Source: a virus
Lineage: Duplodnaviria; Heunggongvirae; Uroviricota; Caudoviricetes
Strand: one strand, 5' to 3'
Length of the DNA: 7,663 nucleotides
Virus record (IMG/VR): IMGVR_UViG_2778261534_000005
Position 1 is the first letter of the stretch, and the number at the start of each line of letters is the position of its first letter. Below, piece after piece: positions 1 to 7,663 of the stretch. The position numbers and the translations under genes were made by a program. A model generated the notes under the pieces. The model was not told the DNA's origin, made no database searches, and saw nothing but the letters and a program-made list of their open reading frames with translations.

Positions 1-30
1 CAAGCCATAGGGAGGTGTAGAGAAACCGTT

Positions 31-72
31 AAGGTGTCTGTACAGTTACATCTTAAACAACCATCACAGTGA
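31..72. repeat. Copy A of a degenerate dispersed repeat (aaggtg ... agttacatcttaa ... acagtga)
   Basis: The 13-mer agttacatcttaa at 44..56 recurs exactly at 319..331. Both copies are preceded by aaggtg (31..36 and 313..318) and followed by acagtga (66..72 and 331..337). Copy A carries short insertions relative to copy B. Confidence 0.55.
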
Positions 73-312
73 TGTCAAATAGTTCTTTTAAGAAGGGAGG
101 GTTCTTTCTCATGTATCACCCTCTCTTCCCGTTAAGTAAGCTACACAGACCTAGAGAACATGCTCTGTAACACCTTCACAAACATTGACTAAGGTCAACT
201 TCATAAACTCAGAGTTAAGTTACCTTGAAAGATTTTACCAAGAAACTACACAGGTGTTATTTAGTCTGACTGTGAAGGGATATTTAACGGGAGAGAAAGT
301 AACGATATACCG

Positions 313-337
313 AAGGTGAGTTACATCTTAACAGTGA
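313..337. repeat. Copy B of the same degenerate dispersed repeat
   Basis: Same motif order as copy A (aaggtg, agttacatcttaa, acagtga). Flanking sequence is also loosely alignable: gttaagtaag occurs at 131..140 and 451..460, and aagaag-gaggg-like runs follow both copies. Confidence 0.55.
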
Positions 338-411
338 CTGTAAGAGATACCTGAAAAGATACTTAACAGAACTACCAAGAAGAGAGGGAACGATAAGACC
401 AGAGGTAGTGA

Positions 412-424
412 CCTGTTAAACAGG
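412..424. repeat. 13-bp palindrome CCTGTT-A-AACAGG
   Basis: 6-bp arms are exact reverse complements around a single central base, inside the repeat-rich noncoding block. Confidence 0.5.
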
Positions 425-845
425 CTGTTTCAAAGTCTCTTAAGAAATCTGTTAAGTAAGGGCTATGTGACCAATATTACCATTTTGTCAATGCTTTTGT
501 CTTTGACCTAAATCAATAAAATGTATCGTTTGATATGCTTTTAAACAAAATGGCTAAAAAATCTTTTTAGAGGGGCGCTTCGCTTGTGTCACCAATATAT
601 TCTTCCCTGTCTAAGAGGGAAGTTACAGGGACATTTCAAAGCCCTCAATAGACAAACCGAGGAACACGGGAAACCGAGGGAAGAAAAATCTATTGTGATT
701 GCCTTGAACAAGGTCTGTAAAGGTCGTTTAAGGGGTCGGTTAAGAAAGGAGCTTCCCTCTCTGGGGTTATCGCTCTTCTCTCGCTTAGTGGATTGATTAG
801 GGGTTGTGTTATACAAGCCCAACTAAGAAGACCTCTGAAGTTTCC

Positions 846-1035
846 CTGTGAAGAAGCTGAACAGCTATTATATATGGCTAATTACAACTAATTGAAAAAT
901 AAGCATTTTTAGAAGTTACTGTTAAGGTTACAGAGTTGTCTGTGAAGAGACTTGTCAGTTCTCTATATATGGCTAATTACAACTTATTGAAAAATAAGAA
1001 CTTTTAGAAGTTACTGTCAGAGAGGTGAATACTTG
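846..1035. repeat. Imperfect tandem duplication of a ~94-bp unit (846..939 and 940..~1035) with a near-identical 54-bp core
   Basis: Both units start with ctgtgaaga. The cores at 869..922 and 964..1017 (tatatatggctaattacaac-N-attgaaaaataag...ttttagaagttactgt) differ at only about 3 positions; the flanks are more diverged. Confidence 0.8.
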
Positions 1036-1098
1036 ATAGATACAGCTTTCCGGTTCTGTCAAGCTATTTTTTCATAGATAGCACAAAATGCTAAAGAT

Positions 1099-1128
1099 AC
1101 CCCTATACCATCACGTACAGGGGGTTTT
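1099..1128 (-). terminator. Putative hairpin terminator for the leftward small-protein transcript, possibly bidirectional
   Basis: Stem 1100..1108 pairs with 1115..1123 (9 bp; one G-U wobble in the minus-strand RNA, which is an A-C mismatch on plus), loop 1109..1114. It sits 14 nt downstream of the minus-strand stop at 1138..1140 and is followed on the minus strand by a U-rich but interrupted tail; on the plus strand TTTT (1125..1128) follows. Confidence 0.35.
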
Positions 1129-1137
1129 GGAGGGATT

Positions 1138-1326
1138 TTAACGAGGGTCTGTATGGTTGTCTTCACGGCCTCTGTCCTTGAGGTCAAACGACCATTCACG
1201 ACCAAACAACCGAAACACGATAAACACCCTGACGATGAAATAGCGAAGTAGTAGGCCTGCAATCAGCCCAACACCTCCACCAGCCCATACATCAGGTGAC
1301 CCCAGTTCAGGAGGGAGATTTACCAT
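1138..1326 (-). CDS. Small membrane protein, 62 aa, one predicted transmembrane helix; function unknown
   Basis: ORF-track product MVNLPPELGSPDVWAGGGVGLIAGLLLRYFIVRVFIVFRLFG... has a hydrophobic core followed by a charged tail. GAAGG Shine-Dalgarno about 8 nt upstream of the ATG on the minus strand; extended -10 promoter ~110 nt upstream; hairpin after the stop. Local GC is higher than in the flanking noncoding DNA. Confidence 0.4.
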   Translation of the reverse strand: MVNLPPELGSPDVWAGGGVGLIAGLLLRYFIVRVFIVFRLFGREWSFDLKDRGREDNHTDPR

Positions 1327-1440
1327 TCAATGTACCTTCTGTGTGCAATGCAAAAAACATGTGACCATTCTCGATAGTTGATTCGGTTTATCGAATAAAC
1401 CTCATAGCCACGCTTCATATTTTCCCTCTCCCATAAACCC

Positions 1441-1470
1441 ATTATACCATAAATGTTAATAAATTGTTAA
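1441..1470 (-). promoter_or_regulatory. Leftward sigma70-type promoter with an extended -10 (TGnTATAAT)
   Basis: The minus strand reads TTAACA (plus 1470..1465), an 18-nt spacer, then TGGTATAAT (plus 1449..1441). The -10 hexamer is a perfect TATAAT with the TG extension. Confidence 0.5.
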
Positions 1471-1477
1471 AAAATAC

Positions 1478-1506
1478 TTGACATTAGTCTTTGAAACTGC
1501 TAGTAT
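1478..1506 (+). promoter_or_regulatory. Rightward sigma70-type promoter for the operon starting at 1559
   Basis: TTGACA at 1478..1483, 17-nt spacer, TAGTAT at 1501..1506, with an AT-rich tract upstream. It lies back-to-back with the leftward promoter; the two -35 elements are about 8 bp apart. Confidence 0.5.
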
Positions 1507-1558
1507 TGTATATATAGTTAACAGGAAATTAACAAACACTAAGAGGGTCAGAATATGA

Positions 1559-2113
1559 ATGAGAGACGCAGAATTTAGAGCGATGCTTCAGGCATCAAAA
1601 GAACGCAACAGACACAACGGTTACAGCTACACAAACAACCCCACCAGCTACGAAGTCCCAGCCTTTACCAAATCCGAACGTAAAAACATTGAAGCGGTCA
1701 TTCGTAGCATTACGCCACGAGACAGATTTATGCCAACTAGAAAGAGCACCCAGAACAGCATCAAAAATTATCTGGCTAGTTTTGACAGCTACGAGCAACT
1801 ACCAAGCAAGCTTGATGATATTTTCATTGGATTCTGTAGAGGTGAAGGTCACCCAAAATACAACAGAAAGCTATTTTATATTCTAAAGAATCTTGACGAA
1901 ATTAACACATGCAGCGTGACAAATCATCTTCAAAGACAATCAACCAGACTTAGCTACGAATTACCAACCGATGCCTATTGTGCATTGCTTGCTGTAATGT
2001 GTGCAAAGCTAATTGGTGTTGTTGAGCATCATGTTGCCGTTGGAAATATTGAGCCAATGGAAAACGAGCAACCAGATTTCGAGTTTGACCCGTATATTTT
2101 GGAGGAATTTTAA
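1559..2113 (+). CDS. Hypothetical protein, 184 aa, basic N-terminus and acidic C-terminus
   Basis: Long ORF directly downstream of the promoter; AAGAGGG ribosome-binding site at 1542..1548. First gene of a tightly packed chain. No family recognised by eye. Confidence 0.7.
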   Translation: MRDAEFRAMLQASKERNRHNGYSYTNNPTSYEVPAFTKSERKNIEAVIRSITPRDRFMPTRKSTQNSIKNYLASFDSYEQLPSKLDDIFIGFCRGEGHPKYNRKLFYILKNLDEINTCSVTNHLQRQSTRLSYELPTDAYCALLAVMCAKLIGVVEHHVAVGNIEPMENEQPDFEFDPYILEEF

Positions 2114-2116
2114 ATA

Positions 2117-2395
2117 ATGAATAAACACACATTAACCCGTATTTCAGAGGAAGCTTTTAACGAGCTTACCAGAATTAAACGAGCTACTAACTTGCCTCAT
2201 CAAACTGTTATGCAACTTGCAATCGCTAAAGAAGTCACTGAGTCGGATTTACTTAAATATCCAGTCTCTAAAGGTCGTAAACACATCCGAATTACTACGG
2301 ACGCTTTAGATACTTTGAAGGCACTTAACAGCTTTAAAATTGATATTGCCCGACTATTGAGCATCAAGATTCACAAATTATCTCAGGAGGTCTGA
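2117..2395 (+). CDS. Hypothetical small protein, 92 aa; possible ribbon-helix-helix-like DNA-binding protein
   Basis: GGAGG at 2101..2105; starts 3 nt after the upstream stop. The N-terminus (TLTRISEEAFNELTRIKRATNLPHQTVMQLAIAKEV) has a strand-helix-helix pattern reminiscent of CopG/Arc-type folds. The fold assignment is inference only. Confidence 0.65.
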   Translation: MNKHTLTRISEEAFNELTRIKRATNLPHQTVMQLAIAKEVTESDLLKYPVSKGRKHIRITTDALDTLKALNSFKIDIARLLSIKIHKLSQEV

Positions 2396-2397
2396 TT

Positions 2398-2670
2398 ATG
2401 AAGCAATGGCGAGATGATATTAAACGGTTCTTTGCAACTTACTTCATGATTAATTACGAAACAGGAATGCTTGAATGGATTGATGGCGGAGAGGTTAAGA
2501 CAAGAGATGATGCTTACGGTAATCCAATGATTCGTTATGGCACTCGTGATTATTATGTGAAGTATGTCATCTGGTTTTTGCATCATGAAGTTCAGGCAAC
2601 TAAAAAGATTATCTTCAGGGATGGTAATAAAAGAAATTGCCACCCAAACAATTTGCTACAGGAGGTTTAA
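2398..2670 (+). CDS. HNH_3-like (homing-endonuclease-related) small protein, 90 aa; canonical catalytic His not evident
   Basis: AGGAGG at 2385..2390 with 7-nt spacing; starts 2 nt after the upstream stop. The C-terminal IIFRDGNKRNCHPNNL (nt 2608..2655) matches the DGNK-N...NL core of HNH_3-type endonucleases, but Phe-Arg sits where His-Ile is usual. Confidence 0.7.
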   Translation: MKQWRDDIKRFFATYFMINYETGMLEWIDGGEVKTRDDAYGNPMIRYGTRDYYVKYVIWFLHHEVQATKKIIFRDGNKRNCHPNNLLQEV

Positions 2671-3056
2671 TGTATGACTTTTATAAACATCGTGACCATT
2701 TGGTAAGATTTGACGGTAAAGTCTGGAAAGACGTAACACAAACCAATAAGCCCAAGTTTACCCACCAGCAATTAGCCTCAAGATTTGATATCTGGACTGA
2801 AGCACAAAAAGATAATGGTGATTTCGAGTTTATCAGGGGTTTTGATTATGCTTACGAAGACGACCTTAAAGACGCCATTAAATTAATTGAGAATTTCAAC
2901 TCTATTAAAAGTGGTGACAAGCACAAAGCCAATGGTAACAGATACGATAAAGATTTAATCATTGATGCAATCACCAAAGGACAATCACAAAGTTATATTT
3001 CTGAGAAATACGGTTTATCACGCAGTCAATACTACAAGATTAAAGCGTCTGTGTAA
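2670..3056 (+). CDS. Putative DNA-binding protein, 128 aa, with a C-terminal recombinase/invertase-type helix-turn-helix
   Basis: The ATG at 2670 overlaps the upstream TAA (TAATG); GGAGG at 2661..2665. The ORF track starts this frame at a TTG at 2637, but the ATG with its Shine-Dalgarno is the more likely start. The C-terminal SQSYISEKYGLSRSQYYKIK resembles HTH_7/Hin-type helix-turn-helix motifs. Confidence 0.7.
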   Translation: MYDFYKHRDHLVRFDGKVWKDVTQTNKPKFTHQQLASRFDIWTEAQKDNGDFEFIRGFDYAYEDDLKDAIKLIENFNSIKSGDKHKANGNRYDKDLIIDAITKGQSQSYISEKYGLSRSQYYKIKASV

Positions 3057-3068
3057 GCCTGTGAGAAT

Positions 3069-3115
3069 GAGTGAGACTCAAAGATGAGCTACCCTATTAC
3101 TAAGGTGTCTCACTC
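3069..3115. promoter_or_regulatory. Perfect 9-bp inverted repeat GAGTGAGAC-N29-GTCTCACTC in an intergenic region
   Basis: Arms at 3069..3077 and 3107..3115 are exact reverse complements. A second small hairpin follows (gtaacc/ggttac, 3121..3137). No T-tract follows, so it is not a classical intrinsic terminator. Confidence 0.45.
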
Positions 3116-3193
3116 CCTCTGTAACCCGCATGGTTACTGGCCTCAGAATGGCTATTTTGGCAGATTTAAGATGTGTTTTAGAGGAATTTAAAA

Positions 3194-3517
3194 ATGAACA
3201 ATCACCCAATGCAAATTTTCGTTGATAACGACACCGCCATGATGATTCAGGCTTTCAGTGATGTAGGTGTTGGCATTGACTTTGATAAGTTGTTAGAGTT
3301 AATGGCTGCTAATGCAGAAAACATCTCTGACTTTATTCAGTCGGTGGAGTTTAACGAGCCTCGAATGATGCTACCAATTTCAGACAGCAACATGAAAAGA
3401 TTGGTTATCGAGCAAACGAACAAATACAGCGTTAGCCCTGAAAGATATCTCAAGGCAGCTATAGCAATTTTGTACGCTGACAATATTTTGGTGACGGATT
3501 CCGTGAGGGTTCACTAA
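3194..3517 (+). CDS. Hypothetical protein, 107 aa
   Basis: AGAGGA ribosome-binding site at 3179..3184, 9 nt before the ATG. No family recognised. Confidence 0.65.
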   Translation: MNNHPMQIFVDNDTAMMIQAFSDVGVGIDFDKLLELMAANAENISDFIQSVEFNEPRMMLPISDSNMKRLVIEQTNKYSVSPERYLKAAIAILYADNILVTDSVRVH

Positions 3518-3594
3518 TGACGTTAATTGTATTATGGACGCTGTTAGGCTTATTTGTTGGCTGCATTATTAACAATGCGGTAAATAAGAATTGA
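3517..3594 (+). CDS. Small hydrophobic peptide, 25 aa (MTLIVLWTLLGLFVGCIINNAVNKN), possible single-pass membrane peptide
   Basis: Absent from the ORF track (too short). The ATG at 3517 overlaps the upstream TAA (TAATG); GAGGG at 3505..3509 with 7-nt spacing. Hydrophobic core followed by a polar basic tail. Confidence 0.4.
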   Translation: MTLIVLWTLLGLFVGCIINNAVNKN

Positions 3595-3618
3595 TGTTAC
3601 CAATCTGTTAAAAAGCTG

Positions 3619-3647
3619 TTGACAAATAACCTTAAGCATGACATAAT
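3619..3647 (+). promoter_or_regulatory. Sigma70-type promoter (TTGACA-17-CATAAT)
   Basis: Perfect -35 TTGACA at 3619..3624, 17-nt spacer, CATAAT at 3642..3647. Confidence 0.5.
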
Positions 3648-3656
3648 TTTAATTAT

Positions 3657-3684
3657 AGAGAGAATTGCTCTCTTATTTTTTTTT
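3657..3684 (+). terminator. Hairpin plus T-tract (intrinsic-terminator-like) just downstream of the promoter
   Basis: agagag (3657..3662) pairs with ctctct (3668..3673), loop aattg, followed by tattttttttt (3674..3684). Confidence 0.5.
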
Positions 3685-3817
3685 CAACAATTCCATCTAC
3701 ATCTAGGGATAGTTATTCTGAAAGGTGCAATGCTTTTCGCTACATGGCCTCTTATATAACCTGAGAGGTCATCTCGAAAAGTCTTTGTTCATTCATTATT
3801 GAATCCTTTACAGCTTT

Positions 3818-3856
3818 GCCCTAACTCATGATTAGGGCGTTTCTTTAAGAGTTTTT
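3818..3856 (+). terminator. Hairpin plus U-rich tail (terminator-like)
   Basis: gccctaa (3818..3824) pairs with ttagggc (3832..3838), 7-nt loop, then gtttctttaagagttttt. Confidence 0.4.
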
Positions 3857-3915
3857 AAACAGAACTTTTAAAGAAAGTTTTTCCTGAAACTTCGTTAACG
3901 TTAAAGCAAACCTTC

Positions 3916-3960
3916 AAAGCCCTTCACAGATGAGGATGAACCTATGTTTAGGGCTTTTTT
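3916..3960 (+). terminator. Hairpin with a large loop plus T-tract (terminator-like)
   Basis: aaagccct (3916..3923) pairs with agggcttt (3950..3957) around a 26-nt loop; the T run extends to 3960. Confidence 0.35.
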
Positions 3961-4070
3961 CAGCTTTTAAAAAGCATACTTGGCAAACGCCTTTTAAGCC
4001 TCTTCTAAGTTCGAGGATGTCAGGTGTGCTTTTTAAAAACTGAATATTACTTAGAAGAGGAAATGAAATA

Positions 4071-4781
4071 ATGGCAAATGACATTTATATTAGTGGAAGA
4101 AAAATTGATAGCTTCGGTGACTGGTCGCCACAGACTGAACATCCAGCTATCGCTATTCAGCGCAAAGAGCACGATGAAAGAATTGCACTTGAGCAAGAGT
4201 TAAAGATGACACCAAAGGAAATTACCTTTGTGTCTCCTGAGCCTCAAGAGATGCCTGATGTATGCAAAACTGAATCATTACTTGAGCTTGAGCGTGAATA
4301 TTACCCACTACTGAAAGCACAAAGAATTAAACTTGATATTGCTTACGATGCGGTTAAGAACTTCGAAGAAACCTCGAAACCTTCAGAATATGATATTGCT
4401 TACGAGATTAAGTCAAACCCATTTATCTATTATGAAGGAAACTTTAATGATGGTTTTGGTACAGCGATTGAAGACGTTCCTAAAGTTCTTCAAAGTATCC
4501 CTGAAGGGTTCCGGTTAATTGATGTCAGACAAGCATTAAGGGGTTCTGGTCAATTTATCCTGATGAGTGATAAGACAGATGAAGAGATTCTTCAGTTAGC
4601 TGAAGCTAATTTGACTAAGCATTATTCCGGTAAACTGGATAAGTTAAAGCAAAAGCTTAGAAAAGAACTTGATAGCATGAAAGAACTTGTTAGTGAATAT
4701 GAATCACAGAAGAAGATTGCTATGCAGGCTGATATTGAGCAGTTAGTGAAGATTTCAACGAAGTACGCAAAGGTGCTTTAA
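4071..4781 (+). CDS. Hypothetical acidic protein, 236 aa; possible tail assembly chaperone by position (inference)
   Basis: GAGG at 4057..4060 about 10 nt before the ATG. First gene after the long noncoding region and two genes upstream of the tape measure gene. Rich in Asp/Glu with a helical, charged C-terminus. Confidence 0.7.
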   Translation: MANDIYISGRKIDSFGDWSPQTEHPAIAIQRKEHDERIALEQELKMTPKEITFVSPEPQEMPDVCKTESLLELEREYYPLLKAQRIKLDIAYDAVKNFEETSKPSEYDIAYEIKSNPFIYYEGNFNDGFGTAIEDVPKVLQSIPEGFRLIDVRQALRGSGQFILMSDKTDEEILQLAEANLTKHYSGKLDKLKQKLRKELDSMKELVSEYESQKKIAMQADIEQLVKISTKYAKVL

Positions 4782-4804
4782 CTACGAATTAAAAAGGGGT
4801 GTGA

Positions 4805-5008
4805 ATGATTGATTTAACAGAACGCTATGAACTTATCAAAGCAATTAGCGAACGATTGAAAGAACAACCCAACAAACCAAAACGAATCAAATCATCCACC
4901 TCTAAGCAAAAGAATAGAATCAGAAGAATCGCTAAGTGGTGTCTTGATAAATTACCAAGTGATTGTCAGATTGTCGGTGAAGATGGCAATTATTATCTGA
5001 TTAAGTAA
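4805..5008 (+). CDS. Hypothetical small basic protein, 67 aa
   Basis: AAGGGG ribosome-binding site just upstream of the ATG at 4805. Its frame is closed by TGA at 4802..4804, so it is not a frameshift extension of the upstream gene. Confidence 0.55.
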   Translation: MIDLTERYELIKAISERLKEQPNKPKRIKSSTSKQKNRIRRIAKWCLDKLPSDCQIVGEDGNYYLIK

Positions 5009-5027
5009 AGAATTGGTTGGGTAAATA

Positions 5028-5067
5028 CGGGGAGAGATTAACCTTAATTGGTTGGTCCTCCCCTTTT
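5028..5067 (+). terminator. Strong intrinsic-terminator-like hairpin immediately upstream of the tape measure gene
   Basis: ggggag (5028..5033) pairs with ctcccc (5057..5062), with internal pairing aacc/ggtt around ttaatt, followed by ttttt (5063..5067). It ends 33 nt before the ATG at 5100. Confidence 0.6.
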
Positions 5068-5099
5068 TCGTATATGAACACTTAAGAGGTGAAACATGA

Positions 5100-7277
5100 A
5101 TGAGCAAATTCACAGTTGATAGTTTTATCGTTGAGCTAGGCTTCAGCGAGAACGTTATTAAGGGCTTGCAAAGAGTTGAAAAGGCAGCTTTGCAGTCAGC
5201 ACAAAGAATTGAAAAGAACCTAAATAAAGGTTTCAGGATTAATACAAAGCAGCTTGATAGTAATTTAACGACTTCTTTAGGGCAACTTGAAAGGAAGTTT
5301 AATAAGACCTTTGACAAGATTGAACAGAGAGCAAGAAACACAAAAGTTTTCCGTTTCACAAGTCAGGTTAATGACGCTATTAATCCTCCAAAACAACCAA
5401 GACAGCCACGAATTAGCGGAAACAGAGCAATCACAGCAGCTTATTCAGCGAATATGAGCAAGCTAAAAGGCTTTGACCCTATTTTGCAGAAATACATCAA
5501 ATCTCAGTTTTACGGGCTATCTGCTAAAGCTGGGTCAATGGATAATTCAAAATTCAATGAGAAGCTGGCTCAGTTAAACACTTCAGTCAGAGAAGCAATT
5601 GCTAAAGCCAGAGGTCATACATCCACCAGCATTAACAATACAAGCGACGCATTTAATAATCTTGCAAGCAATGCGATTAAATTATCTGGTGCATTTTACT
5701 CTGTGATGGGTGCTCTTAACGCTTACAAGGCCATTATGAATGCAGGTCTTAAACGAGATTCCGCACAGAGAGCCGCTAAGTTTGTACTTGGTGATAAAGC
5801 ATCTGAAGCTGAAACATTTATCAGGGGACTGGCTGACAAGACAGGTCTTAATATCTCTGAAGGGCTATCAAGCTACGCTAAGTTTGCAGCAGGTGCTCAG
5901 GGTTCTATGTCACAGGAACAGACACAGGAGCTATTTGGTAATGCAACGGCTATGAGTCGCTTAATGGGGCTTTCTAACGACGAGCTAAACGGCATTCTGA
6001 AAGCATTTGAGCAGATGGCGAGCAAGGGCAAGATTCAAGCTGAAGAGCTTCGTGGGCAGTTAGGTGACCGTATGGCTGGTGCATTTAAGCTATTCGCTGA
6101 AGCATTGGGTATGACTGCTACAGAGCTTGATAAAGCGATGAAAGACGGGAAGATTTTAAGTAGTGATACTCTCCCTAAAGTCGCTAAACAGATGGGCTTG
6201 ATGATTGATAAAGCGGGTGGTTGGGCTGAAGTCGCTAAGAGCACTCAGACAGCTTTAGGTAAGTTAGCAAACAACTGGGATGACACGATGGTGAAAATCT
6301 TCTCAGGTTCACAGGATGAGCTAAATGGCTTCTTATCCAGCCTGAGTAACCTGCTTAGTGAAATGGGTATGAGTTCTTCTATCGCTGGTGATGCTATCGG
6401 TGGACTTATCGACATGCTTAAAGCTGGTGTAGATGATATCCGTATCTTTAACAATCACATTGAAGGCTGGATTTTACAGACTAAGAAGTTCTATTACAGC
6501 CTTGATGACACTAAACGAAAACTACTTGATGAAGTCGGTGATGGTTTTATCAATTTTGTCAAAGGTCTTGCTATAGCGTTATCTGCAAAGACGCTATTCA
6601 GTGCTACTACAGGGGTTATGAACCTGACAAGAGCAATCACAACGTTAGGTACAAGAGCTAATCAGGTGGCTGGTCAGGTAGCTACTGGTAAAGGTGGTGG
6701 AAAACTGAAAGGTGTAGCTGGTGGTGTAGGTAGTGCTCTTGCAATTGGTTATGCTGATGACGGTTATGAAACAGCGTTAGCATTAGCTTCAATGATTCCA
6801 CAAATCAGAGGTGTCACTCTTGGTTTATATGCATTGAAGAAAGCACTGGATTTTATGAATCAGGAAGTAGTCAAAAACGCTAATATGCATCCATCTGGGG
6901 TAGGTGTGGGTAGTGACTTTAATCCTGTGTATTCTGGTGACCCTAATAAACCGAATGTGATTAACGAAGGATGGAGTAGAATTTTTAGTTCAATGGGTGA
7001 ATTGTTTAACAATGCCACAATGAATATTGCAAGATTCAATCATCCAGAATTGATTACCATGAAACAAGATGCATCATTAACGAGCACTGACATCCAAAAT
7101 CTAAGAGATGAAATTAGTGCTTTGAGTAAACGTATTCAGGAGCCAGTGAAAGTTTCACTTGGTGGTGAAGTTGCCATTAAACCAGATGAAACCAGCTTTA
7201 TGACCTTTAGCAGTAATATCTACGACCAATATGCAGAAGCTACGTTATTAAGTTCATCATTCCCAGAAGATGATTGA
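5100..7277 (+). CDS. Phage tail tape measure protein, 725 aa
   Basis: AAGAGGTGA ribosome-binding site 8 nt upstream. Residues ~291..366 (nt ~5970..6197; LSNDELNGILKAFEQMASKGKIQAEELRGQLGDRMAGAFKLFAEALGMTATELDKAMKDGKILSSDTLPKVAKQMG) match the conserved tape measure domain pattern. Long Ala/Gly/Leu-rich helical-looking protein with a Gly-rich segment at residues ~526..549. Confidence 0.85.
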   Translation: MSKFTVDSFIVELGFSENVIKGLQRVEKAALQSAQRIEKNLNKGFRINTKQLDSNLTTSLGQLERKFNKTFDKIEQRARNTKVFRFTSQVNDAINPPKQPRQPRISGNRAITAAYSANMSKLKGFDPILQKYIKSQFYGLSAKAGSMDNSKFNEKLAQLNTSVREAIAKARGHTSTSINNTSDAFNNLASNAIKLSGAFYSVMGALNAYKAIMNAGLKRDSAQRAAKFVLGDKASEAETFIRGLADKTGLNISEGLSSYAKFAAGAQGSMSQEQTQELFGNATAMSRLMGLSNDELNGILKAFEQMASKGKIQAEELRGQLGDRMAGAFKLFAEALGMTATELDKAMKDGKILSSDTLPKVAKQMGLMIDKAGGWAEVAKSTQTALGKLANNWDDTMVKIFSGSQDELNGFLSSLSNLLSEMGMSSSIAGDAIGGLIDMLKAGVDDIRIFNNHIEGWILQTKKFYYSLDDTKRKLLDEVGDGFINFVKGLAIALSAKTLFSATTGVMNLTRAITTLGTRANQVAGQVATGKGGGKLKGVAGGVGSALAIGYADDGYETALALASMIPQIRGVTLGLYALKKALDFMNQEVVKNANMHPSGVGVGSDFNPVYSGDPNKPNVINEGWSRIFSSMGELFNNATMNIARFNHPELITMKQDASLTSTDIQNLRDEISALSKRIQEPVKVSLGGEVAIKPDETSFMTFSSNIYDQYAEATLLSSSFPEDD

Positions 7278-7289
7278 TTTAACGGTGTT

Positions 7290-7342
7290 CTACGTGAATA
7301 AAGCAAAGTTAATACCCACACCAAAAATTATTTTTCACGTAG
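7290..7342. promoter_or_regulatory. 9-bp inverted repeat CTACGTGAA-N35-TTCACGTAG downstream of the tape measure gene
   Basis: Arms at 7290..7298 and 7334..7342 are exact reverse complements. No T-tract follows the right arm. Confidence 0.4.
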
Positions 7343-7373
7343 CTCACGCTTAACAGAGAAAATACTTATATAT

Positions 7374-7663
<290 letters not shown>

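Follow-up and report, generated by a model that had tools for sequence, protein, structure and literature searches.

Partial terminators within Escherichia coli operons set the ratio of upstream to downstream gene products, and in the lambdoid phages processive antitermination is known at tR' with the Q protein, at nut/boxB with the N protein and through the put RNA of HK022. Described here is a hairpin with an adjoining T tract that occupies positions 5029-5068 of a 7,663-nucleotide (nt) stretch of DNA, the IMG/VR record IMGVR_UViG_2778261534_000005 (the whole stretch is called the window below), and immediately precedes the gene of a tape measure protein (TMP). The hairpin is maintained by selection as an RNA structure. 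It is probably, in our moderately confident reading of the sequence, a leaky Rho-independent terminator of + strand transcripts, with read-through feeding the TMP gene and the tube-initiator gene behind it. The locus is not a phage or a phage tail operon; it is a chromosomal island of E. coli.

Terminators in the tail gene block of Felix O1-like phages

The terminator t64 of Salmonella phage Felix O1 is rho-independent and has the sequence gggggagactttaaaaggtcttcccctttttt (Whichard et al. 2010, PMC3185647). According to the same paper, it is unknown whether transcription passes the Felix O1 terminators by read-through or is renewed from secondary promoters (PMC3185647). A literature search of limited extent, which leaves their absence unproven, found no transcript maps of a Felixounavirus.

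The covariance model of the island hairpin was compared with the 85.8-kb genome of Felixounavirus garuso. It gave a single good match (25.8 bits, E = 1e-4; the next match scored about 15 bits), which is the terminator located after the tail tube gene. This site is the one published as t64 in Felix O1 (PMC3185647). A terminator follows the tube gene in all 31 Ounavirinae contigs examined, including Erwinia-phage-like contigs having unrelated stem sequences, and the ATG of the chaperone gene comes only some 20-30 nt after the T tract. The phage layout thus places the abundant tube protein before the terminator and the low-copy chaperones, TMP and baseplate proteins after it.

Both the island hairpin and t64 have a G-rich left arm, a C-rich right arm, a T tract and a similar outer stem. 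Both are situated on the same side of the same gene block, upstream of the TMP and baseplate genes, and the phage terminator leaves too little space before the next ATG for a promoter. However, the phage site follows the tube gene and precedes two chaperone genes, whereas at the island site the genes before it are island-specific and the TMP gene comes directly after it. The stem in the islands is also longer, having 14-17 base pairs (bp) with an added inner helix, compared to 11-13 bp in the phage. By this comparison the island hairpin appears to be a positional and functional analogue of t64. Common descent of the two was considered and is not established, because their flanks are no more alike than shuffled sequences (p 0.45-0.8).

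The island hairpin resembles the partial terminators of E. coli operons in being a GC-clamped hairpin that abuts a U tract, is co-directional with the genes and lies between cistrons needing very different amounts of product. It differs from them in its unusually long stem and in a left arm that is unusually invariant across recombining relatives.

Structure of the hairpin

The stem of the hairpin has 14 pairs, two of which are G.U, and its base is formed by GGGG opposite CCCC (Table 1). Its RNA has a minimum free energy of -23.7 kcal/mol, compared to a mean of -12.1 kcal/mol for shuffled sequences (z = -4.24), and none of 200 shuffles was as good. The original prediction of a GC-clamped hairpin followed by TTTTT ahead of the TMP start is thus confirmed and its description is right in substance, except that the stem is longer than had been stated and that the T tract ends 31 nt, rather than 33 nt, before the ATG at 5100.

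Both strands of the window were scanned for hairpins abutting five T residues. The site at 5029 had the lowest energy, -22.6 kcal/mol, followed by a runner-up of -14.0 kcal/mol (a gap of 8.6). When the whole window was shuffled 100 times with its dinucleotides preserved, the lowest energy of any combination of hairpin and T5 was -16.6 kcal/mol, and none reached -20 kcal/mol. A score of the d'Aubenton-Carafa type was +32.7 for the island hairpin, +52 for phage t64 and +49 for a trpA-type reference, these values being approximate as the formula was combined with modern energies.

Two simpler searches of the window did not report the hairpin: a terminator pattern scan missed it because the bulge interrupts the stem, and a DNA inverted-repeat search missed it because of the G.T pairs. 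The sequence AATTGGTTGG is present twice, at 5011-5020 just before the hairpin and at 5046-5055 in the loop and right arm, a repetition seen in hairpin class A only.

Conservation across related islands

The 236-amino-acid (236-aa) protein encoded upstream of the hairpin was used as a query, and 78 related loci were found in species genomes, IMG/VR and metagenomes, with protein identities of 52-92%. Of the island loci, 70 extend over the TMP start, and each of them contains the hairpin exactly once; in 73 of 73 loci the stem runs straight into a tract of five to seven T residues. Upstream of the hairpin there is in every case a homologue of the small open reading frame (ORF), 67-72 aa long, whose stop codon lies 3-73 nt before the hairpin, and the distance from the end of the T tract to the TMP ATG varies from 18 to 142 nt. 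The structure, which exists far beyond chance expectation, thus holds an invariant position, with the small ORF on one side and the TMP gene on the other.

In total, 29 different hairpin sequences occur, with energies of the stem alone between -15 and -23 kcal/mol. The inner helix is swapped outright between classes (AACC/GGTT, ATCGA/TCGGT and ATCTGGAT/ATCTAGGT), while the differences in the outer helix are C/U exchanges opposite G and insertions or deletions of a single base that shift or remove the bulge. Through G.U wobbles, compensatory substitutions and a bulge that moves, pairing is maintained, with covariation, across 73 loci and 29 sequence versions. In the alignment, which was built with a covariance model of the hairpin and, being fitted to the structure, somewhat inflates the paired fraction, 89% of the cells form standard pairs, compared to 47-65% when the partners are slid by one to three columns. 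Four pairs have changed on both sides, and none of 500 shuffles reached the observed covariation score.

The similarity blocks shared between islands start or end at window positions 5007, 5029, 5040, 5077 and 5084, and 34 combinations of small-ORF type, hairpin class, leader class and TMP type occur in the 70 loci. The hairpin thus persists through heavy reshuffling of its flanks.

G.U pairs account for 72 of the 417 pairs. The mean energy of the + strand RNA is -20.5 kcal/mol, compared to -12.8 kcal/mol for the - strand, and in each of the 29 versions the + strand RNA folds more stably. The use of G.U pairs and this asymmetry indicate that the conserved object is a + strand RNA, not a palindrome at the DNA level, and the hairpin is under clear selection as such.

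The same observations bear on the proposal that the hairpin acts at the DNA level where the island meets phage-derived sequence, as an att or other recombination site, as a cruciform, or as a signal for packaging or replication. The site does lie where phage DNA similarity begins and where islands recombine, and the island encodes two serine recombinases. Yet the pairing relies on G.U wobbles and is far weaker on the other strand, the inverted-repeat search does not report it, the hairpin is internal to the island and not at its ends, and a one-sided T tract is a feature of transcription. A DNA-level role is consequently very improbable, and an att or recombination site in particular is ruled out by the strand asymmetry and the internal position.

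A conserved + strand RNA hairpin could also be an element of RNA stability, processing or protein binding, which would protect the 3' end of the upstream message or a processed 5' end of the TMP message, or would act as a translational operator. The intercistronic location, the strand specificity and the conserved left arm are consistent with such a function. Nevertheless, a U tract is not needed for it and is present in every locus, a stem of 14-17 bp is short for RNase III, the ribosome-binding site lies outside the hairpin, and a covariance-model search of the whole window against Rfam gave no match at E values up to 1. This function is accordingly considered quite unlikely.

Termination and read-through

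The hairpin has the GC-clamped stem, the abutting U tract, the orientation co-directional with the genes and the location just past a stop codon that characterize intrinsic terminators. It is very likely that it acts as one, ending the transcript of the 236-aa and 67-aa gene pair. A candidate promoter upstream of these genes (Table 1) has a conservation of 90% or more among 49 different upstream regions and could feed transcripts into them and into the hairpin. We infer that the hairpin terminates, that it leaks, and that the upstream genes share a promoter with the TMP gene.

Polymerase would transcribe the island-specific 236-aa and 67-aa genes, make the 14-bp GC-clamped hairpin and then enter the U tract, where a fraction of the complexes would be released. 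The remaining complexes would read through and provide mRNA for the tape measure and tube-initiator genes. By such partial release and read-through the hairpin would attenuate transcription and insulate the phage-derived tail genes from those that belong to the island itself.

In five loci the T tract is only 18-21 nt from the TMP ATG and the ribosome-binding site (RBS) directly follows the T tract. The TMP ORF is intact, with 706-725 aa, in four of these five. Since such a gap has no room for a promoter, the TMP mRNA of those four islands must include the hairpin. Leaky termination is plausible, and is favoured because of these intact ORFs, because no conserved sigma-70-like promoter was found between the hairpin and the ATG and because the Felix O1-like phages have the same layout. 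The original prediction that partial termination lowers the dose of TMP transcript is likewise plausible.

Several points weigh against this interpretation. The U tract of the window is only five residues long and is then broken by C and G, and a stem of 14-17 bp is longer than is usual for an E. coli terminator. Of 80 loci, 71 share exactly the same left arm, GGGAGAGATTA, whereas the right arm varies; this invariance goes beyond what structure alone would require and could reflect sequence-specific recognition. Recombination in the loop may account for it, or a sequence-specific reader may. The alignment from which the pairs were counted was fitted to the structure. Activator-dependent promoters, or promoters not of the sigma-70 type, are outside the reach of the promoter scan, which matters chiefly for the islands with long leaders. 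Many islands carry extra modules of 30-110 nt between the T tract and the ATG, and these could hold unrecognised promoters.

The last two points concern an alternative in which the hairpin is an efficient terminator of the upstream transcript and the TMP gene is transcribed from a separate promoter, overlapping the hairpin or located in the variable modules, and perhaps dependent on a phage or island activator and so lacking a good -35 element. An overlapping promoter had been suggested, consisting of TTGGTT, a 17-nt spacer and TATATG. The spacer length is correct and each hexamer was placed one base off, TTGGTT being at 5048-5053 and TATATG at 5071-5076. The promoter itself is not upheld. Its hexamers match the consensus at three and four of six positions (7/12), the -10 element lacks the final T, and the pair is below the 8/12 cut-off and is not in the list of the promoter scan. 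It is not conserved either: the -35 element lies in the loop and right arm, which are altered in hairpin classes B, C, D and F, and GTATATG is missing where the RBS abuts the T tract.

Other candidate sites exist. Some islands have ATGAGA-16-TATAAT (10/12) just upstream of the hairpin, from which transcription would start in the left arm and give transcripts without the full stem, and the long downstream modules have weaker sites such as TGAACA-18-TATTTT. Within the invariant left arm, GATTAT or GATTAA lies 17 nt past a conserved TTGGTT at 5013-5018, a pair whose transcripts would begin within the hairpin. This pair was rejected as a promoter, except as a part of the present alternative, since a 31-nt insert upstream of the hairpin in many islands disrupts its spacing and class E lacks the -35 element. 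Every one of the candidate sites is missing from some islands. No sigma-70-like candidate between the hairpin and the ATG is common to them all, and a search of the window from 60 nt upstream of the hairpin to the ATG gave no sigma-70-like site that matches at 8/12 or better. The five loci with the shortest gap have no downstream room for one. A separate promoter is therefore judged unlikely, and leaky termination remains the preferred interpretation.

The variable modules have features of their own. A module of the form CTACGTGAA...TTCACGTAG, followed by CTCACGCTTAA, can form a stem of 9-12 bp with a loop of about 33 nt. It is found in the window at 7291-7352, between the TMP and tube-initiator genes, and in many other islands between the hairpin and the TMP RBS (for example, at 6130-6200 of locus L011). 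It is a candidate for a portable expression or stability signal of some kind. Another unit of about 30 nt, TATGAG(G)ATAG-N4-CTATC(C)GAA(G)TCTAT with the core GATAG-N4-CTATC, occurs before the hairpin, after it, or right after the equivalent of the 3619-3647 promoter. Examples are at 3905-3945 of L056, at 7244-7290 of L047 and in the leader of L035; the unit is absent from the window. Its inverted repeat has the look of a binding site, or else of a small mobile element.

Possible control of read-through

The likeness to t64 and the invariance of the left arm raise another possibility, namely that the hairpin is a conditional gate. A strong terminator would silence the TMP and tube-initiator genes until polymerase becomes termination-resistant, either through a factor of a Felix O1-like phage that also passes t64 or through the 67-aa protein or the leader RNA of the island. 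The outer stem of the island hairpin resembles that of t64 in the pattern GGGGAGA...TC(C/T)TCCCC followed by a T tract, although the likeness of two G-rich/C-rich terminators may be convergent and the flanks of the two, as described above, have no significant similarity. A strong conserved promoter is followed by a conserved leader of about 450 nt with several hairpin and T runs before the 236-aa gene, and the small ORF beside the hairpin encodes an arginine/lysine-rich stretch. That the passage of Felix O1 transcription through its many terminators is unexplained (PMC3185647) is also compatible with a gate.

The arrangement is reminiscent of lambdoid antitermination, by analogy only, in having a strong conserved promoter, a long conserved leader with terminator-like hairpins, and late-type genes behind a further terminator. 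It differs in having no recognisable element of the Q, N, nut, put or ops type. No known or recognisable antiterminator was found in the island or in the phage, the island proteins have no supporting family match, and the model of the 67-aa protein is of low confidence. A gate of this kind is hence thought improbable.

We are equally doubtful of a more specific form of this proposal, in which the hairpin would be a regulatory mimic of the terminator of a helper phage. The island would then be a satellite or an assembly-interfering element whose tail genes stay silent until an infecting phage, the 67-aa protein or the leader RNA causes read-through, and the expression of its tail genes would be timed to the late phase of the phage.

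The island and its tail genes

The island is about 11 kb long, has a low GC content and is situated between yciI and tonB in strains A10 and E24377A; in the latter, an enterotoxigenic strain (ETEC), it is at 1,400,000-1,414,200 of NC_009801.1. It contains, in order, a small serine recombinase gene, variable small genes, the 236-aa and 67-aa ORFs, the hairpin, the TMP gene, a gene annotated as "phage baseplate protein" and a gene for a 506-aa serine recombinase. The small recombinase gene of A10 points the other way from that of E24377A. There are no capsid, sheath, tube or terminase genes in the island, and PADLOC gave no match to it. In the 5 kb upstream of the TMP gene there are no sheath, tube or chaperone genes, and the ORFs have no family match except for a weak HNH match.

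Window positions 1-5100 match 543 of 5,426 complete E. coli genomes (about 10%), in the chromosome every time, and no match to the window was found in a plasmid collection. Homologues of the 236-aa protein occur in records named by their sources as E. coli, Shigella, Salmonella, E. albertii and E. fergusonii. A literature search found no description of the island, nor of any satellite or island of Felix O1-like phages; the search was limited and the absence is unproven. The island could be a satellite of the virulent Felix O1-like phages or a defence against them.

The gene at 5100-7277 encodes a tape measure protein, as originally predicted (Table 1). Among 50,697 phage records only the Felix O1-like phages match the window, and they do so in patches. 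Window positions 5100-7663 were compared with the corresponding phage region (L081/L082; garuso 77012-79464). The DNA similarity begins at 5091, the patches being 5091-5212 (78% identity), 6003-6151 (77%) and 7458-7663 (97%), the last of which lies in the tube-initiator gene. Over its whole length the TMP is 30-34% identical to the TMPs of Felix O1-like phages, and outside the patches its protein identity is only about 30%. The patchiness suggests that DNA was recently exchanged with phages or that contact surfaces are under constraint. In the Felixounavirus Bas63 the gene after the TMP gene encodes the tube initiator gp18 (cryo-electron microscopy study, PMC12609058), to which the island gene downstream of TMP corresponds.

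The phage TMP gene begins within the second chaperone gene, with neither a gap nor a hairpin between the two. The island hairpin is therefore at the seam of island-specific and phage-like DNA. The two genes upstream of it were considered as tail chaperones and rejected: their products have no BLASTP similarity to the Felixounavirus chaperones, and tblastn gave no phage match. The phage tail operon implied by the original prediction thus does not apply, as both genes are specific to the island.

Other features of the window

The product of the 236-aa ORF had no match in Pfam, PHROG, NCBIfam or PADLOC. Its AlphaFold model has a predicted local distance difference test (pLDDT) score of 72.7 and consists mostly of long helices. 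Foldseek found no match to this model in the PDB or BFVD at E <= 0.001. The RefSeq name "transposase" is therefore backed by no family or fold match. The model of the 67-aa protein, with a predicted template modelling (pTM) score of 0.30, was too poor for a fold search.

Table 1. Features at and around the hairpin (positions refer to the window, except for the island loci)
Feature	Position	Strand	Basis or remark
Candidate upstream promoter, TTGACA-17-CATAAT (11/12, TG)	3619-3647	+	promoter scan
236-aa ORF, coiled-coil protein	4071-4781	+	RefSeq label "transposase", no support found
67-aa ORF, arginine/lysine-rich (basic) middle stretch, no known family	4805-5008	+	stop 20 nt before stem
Stem-loop (terminator hairpin)	5029-5063	+	6 bp + bulged A + 8 bp, 6-nt loop; read directly, folded
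Outer left arm GGGGAG	5029-5034	+	read directly
Bulged A	5035	+	read directly
Inner left arm GATTAACC	5036-5043	+	read directly
Loop TTAATT	5044-5049	+	read directly
Inner right arm GGTTGGTC	5050-5057	+	read directly
Outer right arm CTCCCC	5058-5063	+	read directly
T tract TTTTT (U tract in RNA), abuts stem	5064-5068	+	read directly
Shine-Dalgarno region AAGAGGTG of TMP gene	5084-5091	+	read directly
TMP gene, 725 aa	5100-7277	+	PF20155, phrog_4036
Tube-initiator ("phage baseplate protein") gene start	7434-7663	+	ORF runs past window end
Island locus L002	13300-24520		
Island locus L083	2000-16200		

Positions 3518-4070 form a gene-free, highly conserved stretch that contains the 3619-3647 promoter. 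A hairpin, AGAGAGAATTGCTCTCT, followed by nine T residues is located at 3657-3682, within 10 nt past the promoter, and more runs of hairpin and T end near 3845, 3877, 3960 and 4034. Some blocks of this stretch are at least 90% conserved, for example AAGGTGCAATGCTTTTCG at 3722-3739. The stretch is possibly a small RNA or a regulated leader. A 25-codon ORF, MTLIVLWTLLGLFVGCIINNAVNKN, is found at 3518-3595, its ATG coming right after the stop codon of the ORF at 3194-3517, and its product is hydrophobic and resembles a small membrane peptide. Further upstream, the ORFs at 2398-2670 (weak HNH_3 match) and 2637-3056 (weak helix-turn-helix match) overlap and look like a split or two-part HNH endonuclease.

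The first 1.5 kb of the window (1-1558), of which 351-419, 424-438 and 1453-1500 are the parts of most note, has no long ORF. It has short matches of 82-90% to a gene-free repeat region of garuso at 49.4-49.9 kb. Inverted repeats of 15 nt at 424-438 and 1486-1500 flank about 1 kb, and divergent promoter-like sites are found at 1441-1518. A 54-nt direct repeat is present in two copies, at 869-922 and 964-1017, which are 94% identical and 95 nt apart. The segment 1-1558 is possibly invertible, or possibly phage-like control DNA.

Significance of the hairpin

The hairpin is a signal of an ordinary kind, which marks the end of a transcription unit and probably sets the level of message for the TMP and the tube initiator. 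It is also a landmark, being the one fixed non-coding feature at the seam of the island-specific genes and the phage-derived tail genes. More unusual than the hairpin is its host, a widespread and undescribed island that carries tape measure and tube-initiator genes of the Felix O1 type. If read-through depends on phage infection, a chromosomal element would be coupled to the late programme of a strictly virulent phage, and the hairpin would then bear on the question, raised by the Felix O1 genome paper, of how transcription passes the many terminators of that phage (PMC3185647).

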